From the NCBI RefSeq assembly GCF_022045235.1, contig NW_027266302.1, forward strand, positions 620,001 to 684,000: DNA of 64,000 nucleotides, written 5' to 3'. A program made the translations under genes and the position numbers. The notes beneath the pieces were generated by a model. That model had not been told where the DNA came from. It did not search any database and saw only the letters and a list, made by a program, of their open reading frames with translations. This DNA is from Haliotis cracherodii (Eukaryota). Positions 5,499-43,800 of the stretch are shown in pieces (the first letter of the stretch is position 1; every line of letters begins with the position of its first letter).

Positions 5499-6079
5499 TT
5501 CCCCTCATTGAACATGTATGGGACATGATAGGGAAAGAGTGTGTTAATTAACGTCATAGGCCGCCAACCATGTTGGCGGCAGAACATGGCCATGCACTGC
5601 ATGAGGAGAATAACAGACTGGTGTGAACCAATGCTCTCACAACCAACTATTGGTTTGGCAGCTCAAGATTGGACCACTCTTCCAGGCTGCAGTGATGTAG
5701 CTGTTATATTATTAATGGTTTCAGAAAGCATCATTCACACACTGACAACTATTTTAGTGGGTCTAAGCTAAATACATGAGATTTTTATAATGAAAACAAA
5801 ATATCAATATCATAAAAATGTTTATAATAATCAAGTATCTTAAAGTCACATGCAATATGTTTCTGTTATATACATCTGACAACAAACCATCCTCAAACAC
5901 TTCAAACACAAGGCAATCAAACTTCAAAATCACAGAAACTTTTTATCTAAGTGTTTAGACATATCGAAAAGGAGTGCTGAAGGCAAATTCTCCGACTACT
6001 TAAACCTTGATAAATCTCGAATGTTCATACACACAGGGAGTAAACCCCGTAACTAATTTATAAACAGGTAATATATATA

Positions 6080-6423
6080 CCGTATTCGACGTAATAAGCG
6101 CCCAGGGCGCTCTCAAAATTAGAAATAGGGGGCGCTTATTAGAATATTATATTAGTGAAAAAAACAGAGTTGAAAGATAAATTTCGTGGTTTCTGCTCAT
6201 AGCCTGAAGTGTTTATGTACGACAGATATATTTTTCCAGAATTTAATTGCCCATAATTAAGGGTGCATATAACAAACGAGTGTGTATTATACGAGAATAA
6301 ATAAGTATTGTGTACATTTATCAATCGGAAGGGGTGCTAATTAGGATTGTTCCCTGGCCAATATATTAGCAAATGTCGCTGTGGGCGCTTATTATAGCAG
6401 GGCGCTTATTACGTCGAATACGG
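6080..6423. mobile_element. MITE, Tc1/mariner-pogo superfamily
   Basis: Perfect 24-bp TIR CCGTATTCGACGTAATAAGCGCCC with TA TSD. Lies ~380 nt downstream of the HDAC8 stop codon. Confidence 0.9.
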
Positions 6424-6803
6424 TAATCTCCCTTTAACTTCTGATTTGAAACATCACAATTCATTGAGCACAATAGCTTAACACGAAAACAAAACACAAC
6501 ACCTCAAAGTTCTGACTATTTCAGTCTACTCGTGTTTGTGTACATGTATCTGACATCAGTTCCACACTGAGATTCTGTATATGGGAGAGGCAGCAATTGT
6601 TTTTTACTCCATCAGCACCACTGTGAACCTCCCCTGCCGTGAAGACAGTATTCAAATGATGAATGGTGTGAGGCTGCCTGAAGATGTGGCAGTAGGTAGT
6701 AGCAGTCTCCCTTCAAAGAGATGTCATATGACCCACACTAAGGCACAGGAGACAATCCAGGAAACGTTCATCACATCATGGTCCTTCTATGGATTCATGT
6801 TTT

Positions 6804-12800: not shown

Positions 12801-15732
12801 TGACACTCTATACTAAATAATCTAAGACTAAACAATTGATGAATATCTATGTCAAGTGCCTAAATCATGCTCACAGATAGTTAATACAACCAATTGCAGC
12901 TGTAGAAACTAAAATATTTAGTCCAGTAGTCATATAATGATAACATATAGCTAAACCCTTAAAATGGCAAATTTTTACTAGTCCTTATGATACCATAACT
13001 GTTGACAGCATGGCAAGGACTACAGGACTAGTGCCAATTTCTAATGCTGCATTGCAATAAAATGCTGCATCTCATTAAATAGCCATTTGAAACAGAGCAA
13101 TGTATAAATAAATAATATCCTAACCTGCTTTCTCAGAGAGGGCCTAAATTTCAGGAGGCCCAGTTTTCTAAACAGGCGTAATTTGCTGCAGTAATGATCA
13201 TGGGTTCGAATCCTGGTCAACCCTCATTATGTTTCTAGGTTTGTCAGTGCCATACCCATGGTCTTGTTTCACCAAAGTGGTAAACTTCTAAGACCTGTAA
13301 GGGTTTTCCTCCCACATCAAGCTGGCACACCATGTGACATACTGTTCAATGCGACATTAAACCAAACTCACTTCTAAATATAAATTCAGTAGAGCAATAT
13401 CAACCCCATACTTATTGATTTATGGATGATACTAAACATAATCTTGTCAAAACGATAAACAAACAACAAATTATGTGTTCCAGTGCAAGCGTTCTTATTT
13501 CAAACCTACACTTATTAGTAGTTATTGTGTTATTATTCAAAACATTTTAACACAAATAGTTAAGATGCATTTACAAAACAAGAGAGTGAACAACACAGTG
13601 CTATATAAAGTTAAGAAAAGATATTCCCACTGACTGAGGCCGAACTGTTCTGCCTCTTGGTCATATTTCTCTTCATCCTCTTGGTCACTGATCTTTTCCA
13701 GGAACTCTATATATTCCGATGAGTGGAACTGAAGCAGTTCCGATGCAGTTGCCTCCCTTGGTGGTATCACTCTGAAGAAAAAAAGCATTCATTAGTGATT
13801 GTAAAGGAATGATCTCTTGCTGACCATACAGTTGTTTGACTTGGCAAGGACTATATGTTTAAACAACTCACTTCATGTACTTGACAAGGCCATACGCTTC
13901 TATCAAGCTGTGAACCATGCTTGCCTGAAAGGAAAAAATGGAAACTGTCAAAGAATATTATAACTTAAAGCTTAAAAAAAATAAAAGAATAGGTTCTCAG
14001 GCAATGACTTTTAAGAATATAGTGCGGGCGGGCGATGTTTTTTTAATGTTTTTTTTGTTTGTTTGGTTTTTTTCTTGGGGGTGGGGGTAGGGGTGGGGGG
14101 GGTTAGGGGGCCACCATGACAATAACCAAGATGCGCAGTAAAGCAGTGTGCATGTAAAGGGAAGTAAGTAAATGTGTGCCATATTGGATCACATTGTTTT
14201 TAAGTGTTAGGATTTATTTTTTTTAAATGGAAATAAAAATGAAACATGTGATGATGCAGGCGGTGCCTGAGAACCAAGACTATATTTTTTTTAGCTTAAT
14301 ACATGTCAGTCAGGGGTGGTAACAAACGTGCCTGGAGTTCCCTACCAAAGTCGTGCTTATAATGAGTCTGATACATGTATTACTTAATGTAACTGCTATT
14401 GCACTATACCATATCATGGAAACCTAAGTCTACAGTCTTCATGTTGTAGTTTCCTGATTAGTTGCTAAATATTGAAGGTATTGTTACGTGCATAAAATTA
14501 ATATTGCATTTAATACTATATACATGTGCAAAATTTATTAAATTGAGAGGTCAAAATGAAGTCTGATTTACCCTCAGTTCCACTCTGGGCATCTTGTCAC
14601 AGATGTTGACATAGGTCTCACTGTAAACATAGCCTACTCTGGACTGCACGCTTGACCGTGGAGTCTGTACAGTGCGGACTGGTACAGCACTCGCGCTGCC
14701 ATTACTGGCACAGTCTTTCCCTGGGATGGAGCTGTCAGGTTTTGGAACTTCCTCATTCCTAGCTTGCAGTACCCTCTTCCTCTTGTGCAGGGGAGTCAGT
14801 GGTTGGCTGTGTTCATCACAGTCCATGATGTCGTAAACATCAACATTGTTGGCAACAACCTGTGGCTTTGATTTGTCCTGGTCTGAATATAGTTTATCAC
14901 TGTCTGTTACTTCAAGTACGTTGGATGTCCGATTGACTAGGCTCCCACCTTCACAGTCATCCATATTATTGTCATCTACCTGAACTCTTAGAGTACTGGC
15001 ATGGTTTTGCTGCTCTTGGCACTTGCTATGAACAAAGTCAATTCTATTATGTCTCATTGTTGGAAATTCAGGGTTGTTCTCATCATTACCTACATTGTTA
15101 ACATCAAACGAAGACTTCAATGGATGTGATATTTCTGATTTTACATCATTTCCCCTGCCTTCAGTGGTGGCAGTAATCTCATAACCACTACCTTGTCCCT
15201 GTCTCAATACATGTTTGTCAGGTAAAATACTACAGTTCCCTTTAACATCAGTCAAAGACGCTGGACTTGTTTGACTAGATATATCAGATACTATGTCACA
15301 GAGTCTGCGCTTCTTTAAAGGGTGTTCTGTTGCATCTGGATTTTCATTTACTGATGGATTTTGTTCTCTTGGGGCCGTGTCATGCTTATAGTTTCTGTGC
15401 AATTCAACAGAATTCTGAGAATCATCATTATCAATGTCATAAATGTCTCTAATGTTACTTCCTTGTGCTGGTATAGGGGATGCTACCTCATCAGCATTGA
15501 ACACTGTCTTAGCCATGTTTGGGAAATAATAATTTTTAGTACTACATTCTTCTCTTTTTCCCTCATCTTCTGGTGCAGTTCCATTAACCTTTTCGGCCAC
15601 GATAAATGCATTAATTTCACATTTTGAATCTAGCCATAGTGAGTTTTGAGTTTCAGCATCAGGTGTTATCTCTTTAGTTGATTGTTCCTGTTTCATGGTG
15701 GACAAATGATCACCACCATACTCTGCTGACAT
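6804..15732 (-). CDS. HDAC8: Histone deacetylase 8 (class I HDAC) with long N-terminal extension, 730 aa, 11 coding exons
   Basis: Exons: 15732-14572, 13924-13872, 13771-13635, 12401-12260, 11349-11237, 10003-9926, 9138-9030, 8770-8598, 7952-7858, 7442-7337, 6829-6804 (TGA). All GT-AG, phases consistent, 2193 nt total. Motifs [82 protein letters not shown] are HDAC8-type. Catalytic His-His, Zn ligands and Tyr are intact. Confidence 0.95.
6886..7170. repeat. Minisatellite, ~32-37-bp unit, in last HDAC8 intron
   Basis: GTTTATTAGATTGACTACTGTACATGAATAGTGTGAT, about 8 copies. Confidence 0.9.
10015..10810. repeat. Minisatellite (17/30-bp TGTCAAACAGTGTCA-type units) in HDAC8 intron
   Basis: Direct visual periodicity. 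Source of the Cys/Val-rich spurious ORFs. Confidence 0.9.
12075..12245 (+). mobile_element. tRNA-derived SINE family A, full length
   Basis: GGGGCGGTCGGGTAGCCTAGTGGTTAAAGC...GGTTCGATTCCC...(ACTC)n with 10-bp TSD TCTTCTGTAC (12063-12072, 12246-12255). Confidence 0.9.
12542..12798 (+). mobile_element. SINE-like retroposon family B, near full length
   Basis: Shares body and 3' tail with copies at 5283, 22420, 29575, 37826, 43500, 53860, 58886 and 60049. Confidence 0.85.
12897..13049. mobile_element. hAT-like MITE (CAG...CTG ends)
   Basis: Same family as 40736-40891 and ~48998-49152. Ends CAGCTGTAGAAA / TTTCTAATGCTG. Confidence 0.65.
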
Positions 15733-15852
15733 TTTTTTTGTAAATTTTCATAGCAGAAATCTGAAACATGCAAAAGTATAATGAAGACTGTTCATTTGTG
15801 ATTGGTGAAATTGATAGGCTACAGAATAGCAGAGAGGGCGCCACTGTCCAAC

Positions 15853-16360
15853 CTATTCCCAAACTGCCTCAATGAATTTGTATTTCCCGCCAGACAAATT
15901 CACATTCTCGTAATTCTGTTTACTGGCGACGTAAACGTCCCAAATGAAAACTTCAACCATCGCACTACGCAATGGCAACTCTGATCGCGGCCAAACATCT
16001 ACATTACTTTTGGTTAAGTCTTTGGACAGGAGTGACCATTTAAGAAGCCCAATCGTGTTTGTTTTGTTTTCATCTGAGATGTGGGTTATAACGAAACTTG
16101 ACATTTAGAAAATCCGAAATATGAATATCTCTATTATAACAGAATCAGCTAAATAATGTATGATTATTGTCACATATAACGATCGTTAATTAAACGGTGT
16201 CTGTAATTTGTTTCTTTGTGTATTTCTAATTCAATATGGGTGTTTTGTTTGAAACGACAAATGCCTTGTTTTACATTCGTAAAAGATTCTTCTCAGTTTT
16301 TATATGCTACCTCCGACGCCAAAGAGTTACTTAGAACACATTCTACTTCCGGTAAAGAAG
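15853..16360. promoter_or_regulatory. Probable bidirectional promoter / first exons of HDAC8 (-) and the zinc finger-transposase gene (+)
   Basis: Minus-strand donor at 15852-15851 (AG|GTTGGA) upstream of the HDAC8 acceptor at 15761. ETS-like ACTTCCGG near 16345 followed by a donor-like G|GTAAAG. Locally CpG-enriched. TSS positions are inferred. Confidence 0.45.
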
Positions 16361-18354
16361 AAATATATTGACGATTAATTTGATCATTGTAAGATGAATT
16401 GCGACTTTTTGTAAACATTGCATGTGATTAGAAGATAGATAATTACTTCTACTGTGCAGTTCAATTAGTATTTGCACCAAACAGGAATGATATTTCAGTC
16501 TATTGTGATGTCCCCAGTTTGTCATTATTGAAAATAGAACCACTGTGTCCTCAGATGGTCCTTATTTCGATCATAATCTTCTGAAAACTTATGAAGAAAG
16601 GAAAGATCCAGTGCGATTTTTGTCGAAATACACAAGTATAGAATACTTGCGTACTGGATATAATAAAAATAACGGGTGGTTATTGTCTTGTTCAATTTTC
16701 ACCATAGCATTTCCCCTTGCTTGACAACAGTAGCCTAAGGATCTATACCGAATCGTCGCCTTTACAGTAAATAACGAAGTTGTTATCCATAAATGGTGTC
16801 TACTTTAGACTGAAATTAGTTTTGAAAATTTGAACTGTAGTATGTCTTATGCGTACGCAGAGACCATATATGGTCTCTGTGCGTATGTCAGGTTTACTAA
16901 CCCACAGATGTATGTCCTATGACACTGTCAATTTGTATTTCCTGATTTTCAAATTAATCATTCAGTAGGAGACACCCAACAAATGTATTGCAGAATAATG
17001 TATAATTTCAAGTGTGAAATCTGATCTGTACCCATGGTATCAGTGAGTTCTTTACAGCGACATCACTGTTTATACTTATCAGCTGCACCACCTTGTACAA
17101 TTGTTGTGAGATGAGTCCGCTGTTTCAATCTTGTTTCTGTTAAATGTATTTTTGGTTAGTGTGAGTTTGAGTCCATTCTGTAATCACTGGAAACAGAATT
17201 GATGCCTAATATTATATTTTAATATTATATTCTGTTGTCTAGAGTGCATACATTGTCAATATGTCACAGGTTTTGTATACCGGTATACACCATTTTCCTT
17301 CACAAGTGAATACATACAGGCCAATTTGCAGTATAGTTGCTAATTGTAACCAACAAATCTAGCCATCGCTTGGTTCTAACAAAAGGAAAACCAGCGATCA
17401 AGTGCTTAAACCAATTAGCACTCTGATTACCAATTAGCACTCCGATTACATCTCACAATTGTCTAGTCCAGATAGACCGCCGTCATATAGCTGGAATATT
17501 GCTGAGTGCTGCGTTAACCAACAACCAGCCAACAACAACATCTCACAAACTGCAATATCTCCTGTGCAACATGTGCAATAACCTTGAGGCCTTCGGTTCT
17601 ATTACTCTAATAGTGCTTCAGTGTCACTGATTGTGAGGCAATGGTAGGGTTGGCACAAAGTTCATGTGCAGAGTGAGGCTCATTTGAGGTTCATAGTCAA
17701 ACTGTATATTCACATGTGATGGAGGAAAGTTAGTTAGGGCTGGCTTGAAAAGATTGATAATCAGAATTATTGTCAATGGGAAGAAATGTCAGCAATGTGA
17801 AATTGTGTCATCGATAATAACTTACATAAACTATTGTGATGAAATAAAGTTTAACTTTACCGAAACAGACTTTTTATTGTCAGTCATGTCAATTTCCGAA
17901 GAGGGAAAGCAACTGTTTCTGTTATATCTTACATGTCCGCAAAGTAATCTGTGCTTAAATGTGCCACCACTCACCAGTGGCTTGAAATATGTTGATTTCT
18001 TTCGTACTTTTTTGCATATCTGCTCAATATTATTTCTGCGATATTTATCAATATTAAGTTAACGATTATCAATCTCTGTGATGTATATCGTTAGCCAGCC
18101 CTCAAAGTAGTGCATACAAATGCTTAAAGTATTGAAGATGGAGTGCACACTAACATTATCCATTTCATGTTGTGTTCGACCTGGGTTTGAACCTATTTGA
18201 TATTATTTCAGATGTGACAACTAAAATCAAGCTACTCAAGACAGGAAACTTATACACAAGATACAGCAGCTACAACATCACACAGTATCTTAAGATGATA
18301 TTGAGGTTCCTCTGATGTAATCATTAAGGTGAATCAGAGGTCACGACAATAGCC

Positions 18355-20794
18355 ATGTCTTCTTTAACCTCTCCAAAGTCCTCCAGAAAGAGGATTAAAA
18401 AACGACCTCCTGTAAAATTAACTGTGAAGATCCCCAGTCCTGAGAAAAAGAGAAAGAAAATGAAAAGTGAATCTCTGGATTTTGATGATCATGATTACAC
18501 ATGTACGGTGTGTGACTTTTGTTCCAAGTCATTTGGAGATGGGGCCAAGTTGTTGAGTCATATGAGGAAGAGTCACCGCCAGGGATCACACATCTGTATG
18601 TGTCATGGCAAGCTGTTCAAGACTCGCAGAAGCATGCAAAGCCACGAAGAGAAGATGCAGGTGAAATATTTTTTACATTACATGTAGTTTTGAAACATTC
18701 TGTGACATGCTTTTTTCAATGTTAAAACTTATAGCCATAAGCCCTATGGTTCAAAATGAAATGTTTGTTTTCAAACTGTTGCCAAGAAAATTAGGAGGCA
18801 AAGACACAGCTTTCCTACGGACTTTTGGTATAATTCGCATCGTCATCATGTTGAGCCAATCTTAGATATCTGGCTTACTAATTATTAAACAAGATTAAGA
18901 TTAGTAGACAAGTCTTTGTTGTAGTGTAACCCACATTGTGTGTTTTCAGGACGGTACAATGGGTCAGAGAAAGAACTATCGGAAATACACACAAGAAGCC
19001 CTGCTCAATGCCTACAATGCTGTGAAAGAAGGGAAAATGTCTACAAGAAAAGCAGCAAAGAAGTTCAGCATCCCTTTCACCACCCTCCTTGACAGAGTTG
19101 CCGGTCGGTTTGAAGTCAACACATATATGGCTACCTCAGGGCCAAGGCCTCTCATAAGCCGGGATGACGAACAGAAGCTGTGTCTTCATGTGCAGTTCAT
19201 GGCTGCAATCGGCTACACATACCTCCGAACTACTGTCACACAGCTAGCAACAGAACTTGCAACCTTCAAATGTGTCCTTGATGAAGGCAAGTCTTTGTCG
19301 GACAACTGGTACAGAAAGTTTGTCAATCGATGGCCTGAACTGTCCAAGAAGCCCAAAGGAGCCAGTGCTGTGTCTCCAGCAAGCACAGAAGTTGTGAAGA
19401 AGTATTACCAAGAGTATGTTCAAACACTGACCACACATGGTATTGAAGGTAAACCTGAGAACATCTATTGTTTAACTGTATACGAACTGAACATCCAGAA
19501 GTATGACCAGAATCAAGGAAAGAAGAAGTGTTCTGGCAATAAAGTTTCTGATATGGTGTCCATCATCTTGTGTAGTAATGCTGCTGGGTCGTCCATTGCT
19601 CCTTTCTTTGTATTCAGTGGTGGTGCTTACAGTGACAAGCTCATGGAGGGATCTCTGCCAAACTCACAAGCCCGCGTGTCACCTTCTGGGGTGATGGATA
19701 GCTCAATGTTCAAGGACTACTTCAAGAACCATCTTCTGAAGCTGCTCAAGGCAGACATGGATGTGAAGGAAGGGCCTGTGTTGGTGACATACAACGGCCA
19801 CCTGATACACTTTGAAATAGAGCGTATTGAATGGGCAAGGAAGCATGGAGTCTTACTGTTTGCACTGCCACCAGTCACAGACCATCTCAAGAGCTCACTG
19901 GATTCAGAAATGAAGGATATGTTCCACCAGCTGTTCAAGCAAGAGGCCAAGAAGTACCAGAAGAAACATTTTGGAGATCCACTTACAAAGTATAATGTCT
20001 GGAGCGTTGTCAGGAAGGTGTTTCCCCAAGTCTTCACAAAAAGGATCCTGATCCGGTTCTTCAAGAACGCTGGCATCTATCCTGTTGTTCCTGAACTTGT
20101 GGACCCGGAAGTGACCTATGCAGATGTCGAAGATCTGGACGAGTCTGTGTATGATGATCTGGAGAGCACTGAAGCCTTCCTTCAAGTTCGGCTTCCATTT
20201 CCCAATGTAGCAAACAGAGTTCTCTTGAGGAGAAATGGGTTGCCACTTCAAACCTCAAACAAGATGCTTGAGAGGTTTGGTCAGCCTTCAAAGAAGGATG
20301 AGAAGGCCCCTTTAAAGTTGGCCACCACGGAACATTCTTATGTACATGGAGTGGTGTTGAGCCAGGCAGAGAACGAGACTGATGATACCGTGGCAGTGAA
20401 GCCAATCATTGATGTGCCTCATTCTAGTGGGCCCCTCTTTGCACCTGATCCAGCCACAAAAGGGGTTAAAATAGAAGACACAGACACTGTGGAACATGTG
20501 ATCAGCGAGGTCACCACCGCCAGTCACGTGGGTGTCGAGGACCCTGTCCTTGTTATAGAGACACAGGTCGTGTCGTCAGTGGTGGAGGTGGGAACCACTG
20601 AACTCATCCCTGTTATCGACCTTGCAGGAGGCGCTGACGTAGGTGAAAGTCAAGTGCAAGAGTTCACAGTGAGGACCTCGAGTCAAGAACCTGGGTCAGA
20701 AACGGACCCTGATCAGCCAGCAAGCTTACCTCGCTATGCTTATGTTGTAGATCCGGCCACAAAGATCAAATACAAAATAATGTTTACTAAATAG
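18355..20794 (+). CDS. C2H2 zinc finger + HTH-psq + CENP-B HTH + degenerate DDE_1 protein (probable domesticated pogo/Tigger-family transposase), 716 aa
   Basis: join(18355..18660,18950..20794), phase-0 intron (CAG|GTGAAA ... TTTCAG|GAC). CDFCSKSFGDGAKLLSHMRKSH is a C2H2 finger. RKYTQEALLNAYNAVKEGKMSTRKAAKKFSIPFTTLLDRV is a psq HTH. DEQKLCLHVQFMAAIGY...WYRKFVNRWPEL is a CENP-B HTH. CSNAAGSSIAPFFVF, SPSGVM, VTYNGHLIH and LFALPP match pogo DDE_1 blocks. No TIRs seen. Upstream acceptor at 18211 implies a non-coding first exon. Confidence 0.85.
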
Positions 20795-21848
20795 CTGAAC
20801 AGCATCATTAACTCTTGGGTGAAACTCATCTAAATCCTGTTTATCCCAACAGCTGATTCTGTGAAAAATGTGAGTTGGATGATTATCCTTATATTTTTGG
20901 TATTACTGGTTTGATCTGTTCTCATGAAAAGTGACACCTTTATCCCAAAAGTAAACTCACTGTAACCCTTAAAACATCACAACATTAGTGCCGTGTACTT
21001 TTGTGTGTGCTGGAGGTTCCACTGGTCTGTTAAGGCTGGATGTATGTGGACTGGGATGGACATTCAGCTCGCCGTGTCCCTTGTACTCTTATCATCAGCT
21101 TGCATCAAATTCACTTGTATTAAGATAAATAACATTACATAATCTTGGGTTTGTAGTTGTCTTTTCTCTTGTTTTATTTCAGTACACATGACCTTTCGTT
21201 ATGTATTCAGTGGTTTATTAGAGTGGAGAAATGTGAACTTCACGTTCACACACTTCCAGTGGAGGGACTGCTCAAAGATTGCAACCAACTGTCATAATGT
21301 AGAGGTTGTTTGTCAAAGTTAGACTTAATCTTAGCTCTTACCAATTGGGGATGGGGTAGTCATGGGTGTCCCAGTAAACTAAAATGTCTCAGGTGATGCA
21401 ATTCGCCATACTGAGTTGTGTCCCTTTGGTGAGCCAGAATCTGATTTTGTCAGGGTGAATCCCAGATTGCGATACTGATTGGCCCCAATTATATGTATTG
21501 GTTTGTCAGCACCATAGACATGATGGAGTAGGGATCTTTACATGCTACCTACCTAGGCAATGGAACCAAGGTCTCCAGTCTCACGCATTTGATCCCCGGC
21601 TGCGTCATACCAAAAGGCGTTAAAAGATGTTTTTTGTTGTTACCCTGCATGGTGCTTGGCATTAAGGGCCTAAAACATGGACTGGCCAGCCTGGTGCCTA
21701 AGTTGGGTAGTCATGTTAAACTGTGGAATGGTATCTCAGTAGTCTATCACTATAAAATCGGCATTAGTCCAGACTAGTACAAGCAGCCACACAAACATGC
21801 ATGCACATTGCTATATAAGTGCAATAATCTTGGAGGCAACGTTAAATC

Positions 21849-22222
21849 AGAACAGGAAATAGTCACTGGGGGCTAAGTCTGGGCTGTACTGAAGGATTGA
21901 AGTTGTATTTGTTGACGTTCATCAGCTGATGAAGACAGTGCCTCATGTGAGCAAATTCCATGATGACTATTTCCTGTTCTGGCAAATGAAATCTGCCCTA
22001 CGTGGAAGACGCTTCCAGGATGACGAGGACATAAAGGCTGCCACAGAGGCATGGTTAGAGGGCCAATCTGCGGATTTCTATAAAAGTGGTATTAAAAGCT
22101 TGAAGGGCAAATGGAATAAGTATATTGAGGTGAATGGAGATTATATTGAAAAATAATAGTGCTTAAGATATTCTGCTACTTGGTCTCATATTGAAGTTGC
22201 AAAACTTATTGAACGCCCCTCG
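21849..22222 (+). pseudogene. mariner (DD34D) transposase C-terminal remnant with right TIR
   Basis: DYFLFWQMKSALRGRRFQDDEDIK...GIKSLKGKWNKYIEVNGDYIEK*. End AAAACTTATTGAACGCCCCTCG+TA. YSPDLAPSDYF is present in inverted orientation at 21857-21889. Confidence 0.85.
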
Positions 22223-22419
22223 TACCACCAGCACAGGTTGCTGCGGATGAATTCTAACACAGAATAAGCTGCAATCCAGTGATCACATAAAAAAATTGGG
22301 CCAACTCTTCAGCACCTGTTGATACCATGTAGTAAGATGTCCATCACCAAGAGTCAGCAACACTTTTATCAGTGTCTGGATGGACTGTCACACCATCTCA
22401 ACTGGTAAAAAGCTACTAT

Positions 22420-22622
22420 CCTTGTCGTAAGATGCGACTAAAGGGGTCGGGTGGTTAGACTAACTGACTTGGTTGATGCATATCATCATCTCCTAATGGC
22501 GTTGATGGATGCTCATGATGTCAATCACGGGATTGTCTGGTCCAGACTTGATTATTTACAGGCAGCCGTCATACAGCTGGAATATTGCTGAGTGCGGTGT
22601 TTAAACAACAACCAACCAACAA
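22420..22622 (+). mobile_element. SINE-like retroposon family B, 5'-truncated
   Basis: CTTGTCGTAAGATGCGACTAA...GCTGGAATATTGCTGAGTGCGG...(AACC)n. Confidence 0.8.
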
Positions 22623-25600
22623 ACCTTGATTTATCCCCTTAATGCCGAGCCACAGGCAGAGAAACAAGTACTCATAAACCATTCAATATTTCTTCTTGAA
22701 ACTTGGAATACACATAAGGCATGCACAGTGCCTTTTGCTGTTCAGGAATTGTTTAAAATTTTATGATTTGCCTTGCCAATGCAGCAATTTGTACATACCT
22801 GGTAGGTTCAAATGATGGTAGGGTCCATTTCTAAAGCATAACTCATCAATGGCTAAATATGACCTTGTGAAACTTTGTATCAGGCAAGTGCTGAACTGGT
22901 GAATTTTGCCATTCAGGAGTTTGACAAAAAAAATTTTTTATTGCATTTCCAAGGCAACAAGTTGGAATTTGTTCAGAGTACAACTAGAATATGTTCAGTG
23001 TGTCTTGATGAAACCTTGTATTCACATCACACCTCACACACCATATAACGTACGTATTCACAGCAACCTGTATTTGTTAACAGGCCAAGACCGTATGTTT
23101 GTTTGTTGTTTAACTCCACACACAGCAATACTCAAGCCATATGATGGCAGCCTTTAAGTAATCAAGTCTGGACTAGATAATTCTGTGATTCTTATTTATG
23201 ATCAATGATCCATGCCATCAGGGTGCAACGACATGCTATCAACCAGTGGCTGAGCCTCTTGCTACCTCTTAGTGAGGACCAGTTCTAATTTGGTGTGGCT
23301 GGTGCAGAGCATTCATGATGCACAAAAACAACAATACAGTCTCTATCATCTTTTGGTTTTATTCATAGGACTGAGCAAAATAATGACCCACATAAAGTGA
23401 ACATATTGTATGTAGGTATAACAATTTCCTTTTAGGTGGACTTTCTTAAAGTAATCTTCCCCATACAAAGAATACATTTTCAAGAGGCAAATCTATGAAA
23501 ATCTTGAAAAACTGAAATTTAATCCTCATTATGCTTGCAATCAAACCTCCCTACCACCCCCCTTTCACTCACTCACACATAACACAGGGCATACATTCTT
23601 TAAAATTATTCAATATTTACATCAATTTGTAAACACATTCTAAAAAACATTGAATGTACAATCAAGGTTATTAAATATAGTGCACAAATACCCTGAAGCA
23701 CTGAATTATCTTTTAAAATTGACAATGTATTGAAACACATTTCATCGAACTAATAAAAATTTGCCTGCAAGATACAATTCAAAGACTTCACAAAATGAAA
23801 TACCAATCTGATAAATCAATATCCTTTGTGACAATTCAATTGTAGTCTATATCTTTCATATCAAATGTGCCAAAAAGTGCTTGGTCACAAGCTAGAATAA
23901 ATATTGTTTTGAAATAAACACATCTCAGTAACTCCTCCGACTAACAATGCTGACAACTTTTCTGATAACCTTTATCCCTCCGTTATTTGTAATACACCGC
24001 ATGCTTAACAATTTCACATTGATCAAGGTGTATGAATTATTTGCATTTAAACATAATGTTCCAATGGATTACATCGTTTTCACTGATGGCGATATCCCAA
24101 ATATACCTTGTAACCTCAGATTATCATACATCGATTGCTTGATGTTTCTATGTAAATTGTCTCACACAAACACAACATACCAGCTCTGTTCAGTGACAGC
24201 CAAGATCATTTGCTCAAAACCTAAAATGGCAATTAATCTCAGAATCCAAAGTCAAATACCTTGGCTTCCCAGTAAACATCACAGGGCCTAAGAATCACAC
24301 ACACACCAAGAGCTGCAGTCCTTCGAATTTGAACTTAGCTTCAAACAAATTCTGCTATGTTCAAACACTTTCCTTCGCAGTTCATTTGATATTGACTGAA
24401 AAATGAAAGTAATATGACTCCCTTTATCCAAGACGTGTATTGTAATCATAATCTCTCTCAAACAGCATTGTCTCTGTACAAGGATCACACCTCTCAACAA
24501 GCAGATTGTATCGAGATCATTTTTACACTCAAGCACACAACTGAGAGCATTTTCCAACTCCCATGTACACTTTCTCTACAAACACACTTTATTGAGAGTA
24601 TTTCCATTCACCCAACACAAAGTATTCTGAATCAGCTGGCATAAAGCATCTATCACTCATTGTGTGCCAGAGCAATAGCTCCAAATTGCTTGTGTTTCAT
24701 TGTGATGGTGCCAGCCTTAAAACAGCATAGAAGAGAAACCACAACCAGTCAACGACCATTCTGAAATAATGTCCCCCATGTTTGTCAAAAGCAAAAACAT
24801 TATTCCAGATCTGAAATGGTTCCTTTCTCATGAAGAAGTGATACATACTGACACACACAAACAGGAAGGGCATTCAGTCGTGTCGCGGAAGCTGCTCCAC
24901 TCTACATTCCCATCAGTTGCACACCCTGCCTGCTAGATACCAAACCACAAAGAAACATTGTCATAGGATCAACGACATTATTTTCTCATTGCAGATTACA
25001 CCTTCATGCTGTACCTTGACACACAGTCCCTTTAACAACAGTCCAATGTGTACACAGTTGATTTGCAACCATCCTTTGAGACTTAAAATGTTTAGAGAAA
25101 GTTTGCTATTGTTACAGTGGAAGACAAGAAGAATGGATTGGCACATTGTGCCTATTACTTTCCAAATTGAACCCTGGTATTCAGTTATTTTCACATGATA
25201 CCCACCACCTGAAGATTGAAGGAAATCCTGCCCAACAAGTGCAAGGGCAGCAAAATTCAAGCCACTACATAAGGCAACTTCAGTTCTACTGTACTTGAGT
25301 ATATACAGATCAGGTCAGTGCTAGGTTTGGTGGTGAACCAGGTTTAGAAAACAAATGTAATCAAGTGACCACACAAGTCTCCATGGTAATGTGTAGGCAA
25401 ACAGGGCAGTGGGGTCAGTGGGCAGTCAGCTGTACAAGGGTGGAACTGAAAGGTCACAATATCCATAACCATACCTGATTCACAATACAGTATGTATTGC
25501 TATACAACATAGACGTTTGGTGTGACAGAGTATGTTTTCTGCTGTATCAGCTGTTTTGTGGATACCTTGATTAGGATTCATATTTCCTACTTTTGTACAC

Positions 25601-40800: not shown

Positions 40801-43800
40801 AAAAAGGGCAAATTTCTACTAGTCCTTATGATACCTTTACCATTGGGCACTTTGGCAAGGACTATAGGACTAGTGCCAATTTCTAACGCTGCTATTGTAT
40901 GTGTTATACAGTAAACTACGGTTATAACGAACACAAAGGGACCACTAATTTTGGTTCGTTATAACCGTAGTTCGCTATAAGCATATATACAGCTTATATA
41001 CAACAAATGGCCGTGACTAAAAAATAAGTTCCTTATATCAGTCCGTTCCTTATAAGCGTGTTCGTTATAACCGTAGTTTACTGTATAATACTTCCTCTTG
41101 ACAAGATTGTGTGCAGAAATATTTTTATACAGTTATCAGGGATATACTCCATTAAAACTCTGCACTTAATTACCATCAGATAACATTGATAATTGATCCT
41201 GAAAACTGCTTACGGGGTATCTACAAATACATGAAAAATGTCAAAAACCCAATAGCATAACCTGATAACACTGTGTTATTATCCAATGTATCCTTTTCAA
41301 CTTGCGTACCTATATTTCATTAGATATTTATTTACTGAAGGAATGCAGGCATCACACATACATGAACTGTAGTCTACTGCTGTGAATAATGCAAAAACTA
41401 GGCATTATATTCCGTTATGATTAATTGAATATCTATATATATATATTACTCATAAGTCATTAAGGGTAGAATAATTTCACATATTCATTTCAACATCTCG
41501 AGCATCCTCATCCTCAATTGGGTCAACTGAAGGCATATGATGTCACACTCATTGTTGTGAAAAATATGATATGATAACATCCATTGTCCACAATGTCAGT
41601 TTGTTTACAGTTCGTCATCTGAACAATTGGCTGCTTTCAGTAATGTTTGTCTGTTGGGTTTACATTTCATAATTTTTTACTTCATTTTGTCTCCTAAAAT
41701 GTTATTGAGTAATACATGGAACAACCAATGCTTGAATGATTGCTGTAAGTCCCTCGCCATGGCTCAGGATTATCACCATTCATACAATTGAAACAGATAA
41801 TCAGTAATTCCTCATAGCTCGTTGGTTATTCTGAGTATGTCACAGTTGTAAGTATATATGACATGTAACACTGGGGCAGCACATGAACAGATGCAAACAA
41901 GAAGTCGCCTGAAACAGCATATAAGCAGAATTATTAAACAAAGGTCTCCGGATGGGTGTAAAAATTCCCAATAAACTGGACCCCAGGGCGTATGACACCC
42001 CCTCTGGATCCAGTGCTTAAACATAGTTAAAACACAATGTTAAAAGTTTCAGGGTTCACCTCATTAAATTTTTATTATACCGGCAGCAAAAATCAAGCCC
42101 CCCCTCCCTCCTCCAATTTCAAACACTGCTTATGTCATTTCTCCCATCTTTTACTGCATGACACCATTAACTTTATTAACATCATCACCGTTATTGGATG
42201 TTGGGCAGGCTTGTCTTACTTTTCACACGGTCATGACAAATCAAAAGCAGATAACATATCTCTCTCCAATTCCTCCTGGCTTAATCAGTGTTAATGACAC
42301 AGACAGACAAATTATCCCAATCTCGTCTTAATGTCTCCCGATTTCACCCAGAAGGATCAACAGGTCCTTGCCCCCAACTATCACAATGCTACAGTGAATA
42401 GGAATAGAGGTCATACCAGATGTCAGCCTCTCAATACGACACCTCAAAGCTGTCACTGTATCATTTGAATCCTTAAATTAAATCTTGTCACCCCAATATT
42501 ACATTTCGGTAGGATAGGATCAGTTTCACAAAATTCTACAGATAATGCTCAGTTGGATAGAAGTTCTTTTGATAAAATCTTCACATTTCTTATTAACCAT
42601 GTATATGTTACCATGGTTACACAACTACTGATATGCTGAGTTTCTCGAGCATACAGCAATAGTGAAGGAGGAAGCTTAACGCCACTTATAACAGTATTCC
42701 AGTTATATCCCAGCGTATCAGCATGATGTGGGAGGAAAGCAGGATGCAGGTCTGAGACATTTACAACTTTGGTGAAACCCACAAGCAAGAGTATGGTACT
42801 GACAAACCATGACCCATTATCAGGAAGAACTCAGATTCGAACTCACATTGATAGGTTTCTGATATTCCGAAGACATCAATAGTGTCAACAGTGAAAATAA
42901 AGACAATACCGGTCAATGTAAGCCATAACTGTTCTCAAGGCATCATTTTCAGAAGAGTTTAGGGTTGATGTATGGACTTATATCAGCTATGCTTACAAGA
43001 ATAAAAGAATTTGTTTTAGACCCTGGCATTTTACTTGTGGCAAATATGTGTACTGCAAAAGCTATTTCAATGTAATGACAAGGAAAACTTTCCTGACATT
43101 TAAGCAATATTTTGGGGCACAAACTGGTATGATAAACAAGTCAACATGATACAATATTTCTTCTTATATGTGTCAACCCTGACTGTGCAATACTCAGCTG
43201 AAGAGGTTACAAAGGAGAACCAAGCCTGTATTCATACAGGTGTGTGACCAGTTACTGCTGAGTACACACAACAATGCCTGGACAGTCTCTCACACCCTGG
43301 ACATGTCCCCCATCAAAAGCTTGACCTGACCTCTGACCCACTGCTTGGACAGGGAAGGCCATCTGTTGCTAAGCCCCCCTCAACATCCTGTTATAATGAT
43401 GCTTACAGTAATCAGTATGGTTGTACACAGCTTGAAGCAACATTCCAGTCACATCACGACAAGGGACACCAAGAATGGATCTCACACATTGTTTTGTTAG
43501 TTTGTTTGTTGTTTAAAGCCACACTCAGCAATATTTCTGCTCTATGACGGCGATCTGTAAATAATTGACTCTGGACCAAACAATCCAGTGATGGACATCA
43601 AGAGCATTGATCTACACAAATGGGATACGATGACATGCATCAACCAACTAAGTTAGTCGCTAGCTGCCTCTTACATAAAGTCAAGTATGGGTTGCCGAAG
43701 ACCAATTCTAACACAGATCTTCACAGGTCACTTGTACATGTACCGTGATAGTATGTGGCACCTTTAATTATGCATTACAATTTACACATACTGTGTACCT

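Follow-up and report, generated by a model that had tools for sequence, protein, structure and literature searches.

A single-copy zinc-finger–pogo transposase fusion gene conserved in abalones, with a candidate HCF-1-binding motif

The window analysed here, a stretch of 64 kb of Haliotis cracherodii DNA, contains a gene in which an exon coding for a basic region and a zinc-finger pair is spliced in phase to a pogo transposase that has lost most of its catalytic triad. We read it as a conserved, single-copy, spliced fusion that is likely to act as a DNA-binding regulator and likely to recruit HCF-1, and give this joint reading a probability of roughly 0.6. That the gene is a domesticated fusion is virtually certain. 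That its product acts as a sequence-specific DNA-binding regulator is a strong expectation from its predicted domains, while recruitment of HCF-1 through the tetrapeptide EHSY, a candidate motif in the C-terminal tail, has about an even chance.

The start codon lies at position 18355 of the plus strand, and the coding part of the exon (18355–18660; 306 nt, 102 codons) ends in CAG/GT at 18660/18661, in phase 0. The intron that follows (18661–18949, 289 nt) has its acceptor, TTTTCAG/GAC at 18949/18950, in frame with a pogo transposase ORF of 614 codons (18950–20794, stop codon 20792–20794), giving a joined product of 716 aa. The RefSeq protein of H. cracherodii, also of 716 aa, matched the long ORF at 100% and was identical in the first 102 residues. 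The 289-base GT..AG junction was present in contigs of all six RNA-like sequencing runs (organisms A–C, five studies), the label RNA being a guess, with no run holding the stretch on record as RNA. The label is supported by runs X1 and X4, which left intronic stretches such as 16907–17308 uncovered. The two DNA-like runs, which were larger and came from organism D, both read through the intron, and the junction was found in neither. A first-pass annotation, made from the sequence alone, had proposed a long intact ORF joined through an in-phase intron to a zinc-finger exon, and had named 18660/18950 as the junction to check; the spliced contigs confirm this arrangement. It had missed a non-coding first exon, which ends at 16388 and is joined to 18212. 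Contigs from X5 and X13 had loose ends before 18212 that matched window sequence up to 16388, and those of X4 and X12 carried 65 and 53 extra letters at the 5′ side. The first exon starts about 400 bp from a divergent histone deacetylase gene. The features of the gene are collected in Table 1.

Table 1. Features of the fusion gene (window positions) and of three degenerate relatives elsewhere in the genome
Feature	Position	Strand	Evidence
Non-coding first exon, start approximate, GT donor at 16389	16324..16388	+	Loose contig ends, extra 5′ letters
Exon 2: 5′-UTR (18212–18354) and 102 codons (basic region, zinc-finger pair)	18212..18660	+	Contig pieces starting at 18212, joined to 18950
Lys/Arg-rich basic stretch, aa 11–37, predicted nuclear localisation signal; includes LTVKIP	18385..18465	+	Sequence
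C2H2 zinc finger C53-x2-C56-x12-H69-x4-H74	18511..18576	+	Pfam zf-C2H2_4, E 8e-5, below curated cut-off
Atypical second finger C81-x-C83-H84...H97, split by the splice donor	18595..18645	+	Sequence; invariant among orthologues
GT-AG phase-0 intron, 289 nt	18661..18949	+	Contig junctions
HTH_psq DNA-binding domain	18989..19111	+	Pfam PF05225, E 2e-10
Second helix-turn-helix, Tc5/CENP-B type, predicted	19160..19330	+	Three confident helices in AlphaFold2 model
DDE_1 RNase H-like domain; triad T (19475), N (19793), D (19901), spacing N-35-D	19463..20110	+	Pfam, alignment, model
EHSY, aa 563–566, (D/E)HxY match at end of conserved tail island	20330..20341	+	Sequence
Acidic, faster-evolving tail, conserved 26-aa terminus, stop codon	20408..20794	+	Identity to H. 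asinina
L011, degenerate relative; triad S-D-N; DHSY	G000:C12:68959559-68960662		
L016, degenerate relative; triad D-D-T; PHD-like finger kept	C67:47384454-47385587		
L029, degenerate relative; triad D-N-T	C1:24644231-24645364		

Several features of the surroundings were recorded. Exon 2 opens with ATG-TGA (18212–18217), a minimal upstream start-stop frame, and the sequence ACTTCCGG at 16346–16353, near the first exon, is presumably an ETS-like site. The divergent neighbour (13639–15734, minus strand) is a class I histone deacetylase gene (Pfam Hist_deacetyl), which we take to be HDAC8-like; it stands head-to-head with the fusion gene and has an unusually long acidic N-terminal exon of ∼390 codons, and its best PDB matches were to HDAC2. 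Downstream of the fusion gene, 21848–22156 holds an 87-codon fragment and an 18-nt perfect inverted repeat; the fragment, which had no Pfam match, we take to resemble the C-terminus of a mariner transposase. Head-to-head placement of genes is a published route to domestication (PMC2777200).

Pfam analysis of the protein recognised HTH_psq (E 2e-10) and, just over the cut-off, DDE_1 (E 3e-5). Among the domains expected beforehand, these two were found and a zf-C2H2_4 finger matched below the cut-off; HTH_Tnp_Tc5, matched by Pfam in relatives, gave no match at E≤1 in this protein. The three catalytic motifs read IYCLTVYE (from 19463), VTYNGHLIH (19784) and SSLD (19892). In an alignment with intact relatives found in this genome (YNVDEKG, YDGHRSH, LQPMDV; general pattern N-x-D-E-x-G, D-G-H-x-S-H, Q-P-x-D), the triad is T278-N384-D420 in place of D-D-D, in agreement with the earlier claim that the third Asp alone remains. 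Counted from the sequence, 35 residues separate N384 and D420, and the relatives are of the DD35D type. An AlphaFold2 model built from 104 aligned sequences reached a mean pLDDT of 89 (a single-sequence fold only 37), and its best matches among solved folds were Mos1 and the SETMAR transposase domain. The RNase H fold is thus retained in the model, and the capacity to bind metal has very likely been lost, judging by the DDE mechanism. The tail is moderately acidic, with 8–9 D/E against 2–3 K/R per 50 residues (ORF residues 451–600), as had been described. No TIR-like pair brackets the gene in 16000–23500 among the 25 longest of 26 pairs, again as noted before, so that both marks of an active pogo transposase, the DDD triad and the TIRs, are missing.

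A protein search of the genome returned 110 matches, only one of which exceeded 35% identity over the full query, namely the locus itself; the next full-length match was 33–35% identical. A DNA search with the gene found itself and one 58-nt match to the flank. The single copy that had been predicted is therefore what the genome holds. Clustering at 90% protein identity gave five members, including sequences from H. cracherodii, H. rufescens, H. asinina and H. rubra, all five sharing the T-N-D triad. The same fusion is present in the RefSeq models of H. cracherodii (716 aa), H. rufescens (716 aa) and H. asinina (705 aa). In the H. rubra model the N-terminal fusion is likewise present; its reading frame shifts near aa 455 and it stops short of EHSY, which may reflect an assembly error or a real loss. 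Outside Haliotis, two word-based searches (proteins of 337–1075 and 393–1253 aa) retrieved no orthologue. In an HMMER search, none of the best 150 of 5144 matches aligned to the finger region, and the best non-orthologues among them were 25–38% identical over the transposase part.

Conservation is strongest in the predicted DNA-binding part. Relative to H. asinina, the finger region (aa 48–102) was identical at 55 of 55 positions, as it was in all three RefSeq orthologues, and the HTH_psq region (aa 103–160) at 58 of 58, a total of 113 of 113; the linker and DDE domain were 93% identical, aa 546–690 of the tail 74% and aa 691–716 85%. Among the 30 coding differences listed (from 40 of 203 and 40 of 69 rows, with alleles and species differences mixed), 18 were synonymous and 12 replacements, a ratio of ∼0.19, and within aa 48–486 ten were synonymous and none a replacement (P 2e-7 under neutrality). 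One further core replacement, outside these lists, occurs in the protein of H. rufescens. The pattern supports purifying selection, in line with the expectation of orthologues evolving well below neutrality, here in four Haliotis species.

The combination of HTH_psq and DD35D is the mark of Fot and Fot-like pogo elements; Passer gave rise to POGZ and POGK, whereas CENP-B, JRK and TIGD trace back to pogoR or Tigger (PMC7386202). By these domain diagnostics the donor is assigned to the HTH_psq/DD35D Fot-like lineage. It follows from the HTH_psq lineage that the origin is independent of POGZ, POGK, CENP-B, JRK and TIGD, as had been surmised.

Relatives in the same genome start with a short ATG exon (MLRVKLPN, MLRVKIHN or MEIRK; 5–8 codons in active relatives), followed by a phase-0 intron with its acceptor just upstream of the HTH. 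By a nearest-AG rule, the nearest acceptor was in phase 0 at nine of ten related loci, 15–51 nt upstream of the aligned start, and the tenth has a phase-0 acceptor at −33; the ten loci are not all independent, since L002 and L005 belong to one wider family. The acceptor of the fusion gene occupies the position matching that of the transposons' own acceptor and, judged by position and phase, appears to have been supplied by the transposon. Vertebrate fusions show the same tendency: in 8 of 9 cases the splice site captured was an acceptor lying shortly before the transposase ORF (bioRxiv 2020.05.07.082677).

The finger exon is likely of host origin. Its donor gene was not found in our searches, including one of the Atlas, which returned generic finger clusters only. 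As regards origin alone, the exon might instead represent the first exon of the transposon itself, into which a finger pair was inserted; we consider this improbable. LTVKIP (aa 22–27) does resemble the L002 first exon MLRVKLPN and the starts of proteins P0023 and P0017, but a pattern of this kind was present in four of 64 N-termini (two of them orthologues) against 1.1 expected. Moreover, Pfam found no C2H2 finger in 33 related proteins, the fetched flanks of 29 related loci held no credible finger, the finger exon is preceded by an acceptor of its own and by a separate non-coding exon, and the dead paralogues L011 and L016 retain short first exons. Under the preferred reading, capture of a host exon, an HTH_psq/DD35D Fot-like element would have landed beside the promoter of the histone deacetylase gene, the exon coding for the basic stretch and finger pair would have captured the element's phase-0 acceptor, and the TIRs, catalysis and a C-terminal PHD finger would have been lost.

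An array of finger-pair frames was observed on contig C67 (G000:C67 ∼23.28–24.27 Mb, loci L058–L082, L104 and L111, with a few more near 25.92–25.95 Mb). It comprises no fewer than 150 short open frames (1462 candidates, of which 150 were scored, all on C67), each coding for a C2H2 finger and a C-x-C-G...H-x3-C finger and reaching a stop 5–41 residues later. The frames lie in blocks on alternating strands, with 98 in 200 kb, and at least two further frames encode CENP-B-type HTH domains. The odd C-x-C second finger is common to the array and to the exon studied here, and the array was considered as its source. Specific descent was not supported by profile score: against a profile of 98 C67 exons the finger exon scored 30.4 bits, within the range of 22 ordinary C2H2 pairs (12.7–40.8) and lower than the profile's own members, whose scores (63–99) are self-inflated. 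By analogy, the array looks like a very large set of alternative last exons of the kind seen at Drosophila mod(mdg4) or lola, loci at which trans-splicing occurs. No BTB exon was found near it among the scored matches, nor was a common 5′ part. The array may be more interesting than the fusion gene itself.

Three other degenerate HTH_psq pogo loci with an intact frame were found in the genome (L011, L016 and L029; Table 1), without close DNA relatives among 30 loci compared. Conserved orthologues of L011 and L016 occur in further Haliotis species, and both genes retain a short first exon, so that among these genes the finger exon is particular to the fusion; the two offer a natural comparison for it. 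A PHD pattern was present in 22 of 46 intact relatives, and in the fusion protein the acidic tail stands in its place. The HTH_psq pogo element L054 (G000:C11:1574500-1580500) is 4.3 kb long and has 27-nt TIRs, an intact DDD triad and a C-terminal PHD-like finger; it has ∼12 near-identical copies and was therefore probably active recently. Another protein, P0021, is predicted to fuse a BTB domain to an HTH_psq-DDE_1 transposase with an intact triad, and its sister is a protein of Mytilus californianus that has several isoforms.

The consensus for HCF-1 binding is (D/E)HxY, i.e. Asp/Glu-His-X-Tyr (PMC13631171). EHSY was found in four of the five cluster members and is absent from the truncated H. 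rubra model. Identity to H. asinina was 12–15 of 15 residues in windows up to EHSY and 6 of 15 right after it. The probability of such a four-residue motif arising in this tail by chance alone is 2%. L011 has DHSY within 21 residues invariant in three species; the dead paralogues L016 and L029 lack (D/E)HxY. The motif was then counted in tails from 158 aligned cores, less three orthologue duplicates and less 80 of the 155 remaining rows (triad gaps, tails <80 aa). Among degenerate relatives 6 of 29 carried it, and among intact ones 2 of 46 (Fisher one-sided 0.034), where the degenerate class takes in third-position D-to-E cases and the copy numbers of non-abalone members lie outside the data. 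Shuffling gave an expectation of 0.63 for the degenerate class, and none of 300 shuffles reached six; without the two proteins that had prompted the count, four occurrences in 27 remained against 0.59 expected (P 0.003). Nine rearranged control motifs occurred 0–1 times in the degenerate class. Among intact relatives, one of the nine was seen 4 times where 0.58 was expected, three of those occurrences sharing a homologous position by common descent. In a quickly built tree of 45 selected rows, the eight motif-bearing rows, which include proteins from Solemya velum and Sinanodonta woodiana, are scattered and require six changes, at least three of them forced by well-supported branches.

The abalone genome encodes HCF-1. 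Possession of a canonical motif is no guarantee of HCF-1 binding, as THAP5 illustrates (PMC13631171). A predicted complex of the abalone HCF-1 Kelch domain (P0224, aa 1–362) with tail residues 548–582, run without alignments or folded controls and with a tool unproven on peptides, scored 0.12 and 0.23 (mark 0.34), values that weigh neither way. A second match, DHDY at aa 45–48, lies directly beside the first finger and is probably fortuitous. In the mechanism we propose, the two helix-turn-helix domains, aided by the finger, would read DNA, the dead RNase H fold would serve as a dimerisation scaffold, and the tail would bring in HCF-1 chromatin complexes through EHSY. Should the motif work, a dead transposase could acquire a regulatory function by a simple means, the gain of four residues. 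Molluscs are not known to use KRAB domains. More tentatively, and with somewhat less than even odds, molluscs may repeatedly have turned Fot-like pogo transposases into transcription factors, with loss of catalysis and independent gain of the HCF-1 motif, the present gene being one case that also captured a finger exon via the transposon's acceptor.

Other functions were weighed. The protein might restrain related transposons, by occupying the TIRs of HTH_psq pogo elements or by poisoning their oligomers as a dead subunit. The whole catalytic fold has been kept, at 93% identity to H. asinina, and related families are young, one 696-aa ORF family having 12 matches of near-identical score and others having copies 90–98% alike. 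However, the protein is only 24–35% identical to full-length resident relatives, whose TIRs differ by family, and near-invariant DNA-binding domains would be more readily explained by fixed host targets than by elements with rapid turnover; we judge restraint unlikely. The first-pass annotation had suggested specific targets for the protein, the TIRs of two MITEs in the window. Both are real inverted-repeat elements, with arms of 26 nt (6080–6423, about 6078–6425) and 34 nt (40909–41083), but neither is supported as a target. The first had 4669 first-look candidates genome-wide (40 scored), and its TIR flanks the 3.2-kb elements L146 and L147. The L146 transposase is of the BrkDBD (Passer) type and gave no significant BLASTP match to the fusion protein (best E 0.07); L146 is likely the autonomous partner of this abundant MITE, whose TIR thus belongs to an unrelated Brinker-type element, and the MITE was rejected. 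TIRs like those of 40909–41083 occur at loci from CENP-B_N or DDE_1 searches, a link weakened by the fact that these are partly nested MITE insertions. This MITE is disfavoured, the closest HTH_psq relatives carrying other TIRs. The TIR of one family of relatives (L009) had no match within the window.

Slightly less probable still is a structural role in chromatin like that of CENP-B or Abp1, with binding to a satellite or heterochromatin box rather than to promoters. The plan is the same, paired HTH domains with a dead DDE domain and an acidic tail, and pogo elements have recurrently been domesticated into centromere proteins (PMC4231638). Against this, the protein has HTH_psq rather than CENP-B_N, the Pfam dimerisation domain matched nothing in it, and the (D/E)HxY motif points to promoter co-regulators. 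Lastly, a decaying transposon copy merged with a neighbouring exon by gene-prediction error is scarcely credible, for although the source family has many decayed copies in the genome and the H. rubra model is truncated, the junction in independent runs, the open frame, the single copy and the strong synonymous excess refute it.

The findings, an in-frame spliced transposase exon in a single-copy gene without TIRs whose orthologues show signs of purifying selection, are those expected of a host-transposase fusion. In the vertebrate fusions KRABINER, SETMAR and PGBD3-CSB (bioRxiv 10.1101/2020.05.07.082677), as here, the transposase occupies its own exon, was captured via an acceptor just upstream of the ORF and is expressed as a fusion transcript only. 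The abalone gene differs in being molluscan and in adding a basic region and a C2H2 pair, where the vertebrate genes add KRAB or SET. With POGZ and POGK it has in common N-terminal zinc fingers, a pogo transposase and an acidic tail, and POGZ was its best match by language-model features (0.92). POGZ, however, is Passer-derived, with 7–9 fingers, HTH_Tnp_Tc5 only, DD35D and 1200–1410 aa (PMC7386202), whereas the abalone protein has HTH_psq, two fingers, T-N-D and 716 aa. Orthology with POGZ was rejected on domains, finger count and triad, and the resemblance is convergent. HTH_psq and the 35-residue spacing are shared with Fot and Fot-like elements (PMC7386202), including oyster Fot1-like elements (PMC7325037), from which the gene differs by its single copy, the absence of TIRs and the loss of two triad residues. 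THAP proteins (PMC13631171) also join a transposon-related DNA-binding domain to a C-terminal (D/E)HxY; their fold is unrelated (P-element lineage), and HCF-1 binding has been shown for them, whereas here it is a prediction from the motif.

Our literature search found no published account of the gene, as had been anticipated; the supplementary tables of PMC7386202 and PMC10027918, outside that search, could list such genes. The closest molluscan counterparts are pogo-derived HTH-Psq and CENPB transcription factors, lineage-specific DNA-binding proteins like the one described here, for which PMC10027918 describes no C2H2 fusion or HCF-1 motif in the passages concerned; its main text makes no mention of Haliotis. 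Because pogo-derived HTH-Psq factors have been catalogued in other molluscs (PMC10027918), the class itself is already known, and the gene is a real, apparently undescribed mollusc member of it. Transposase capture has been documented mostly in vertebrates, with KRAB as the usual effector, and the abalone gene is a supported invertebrate case, with a zinc-finger-plus-pogo layout that is independent of POGZ and comes from a pogo lineage outside the three behind 12 vertebrate genes.
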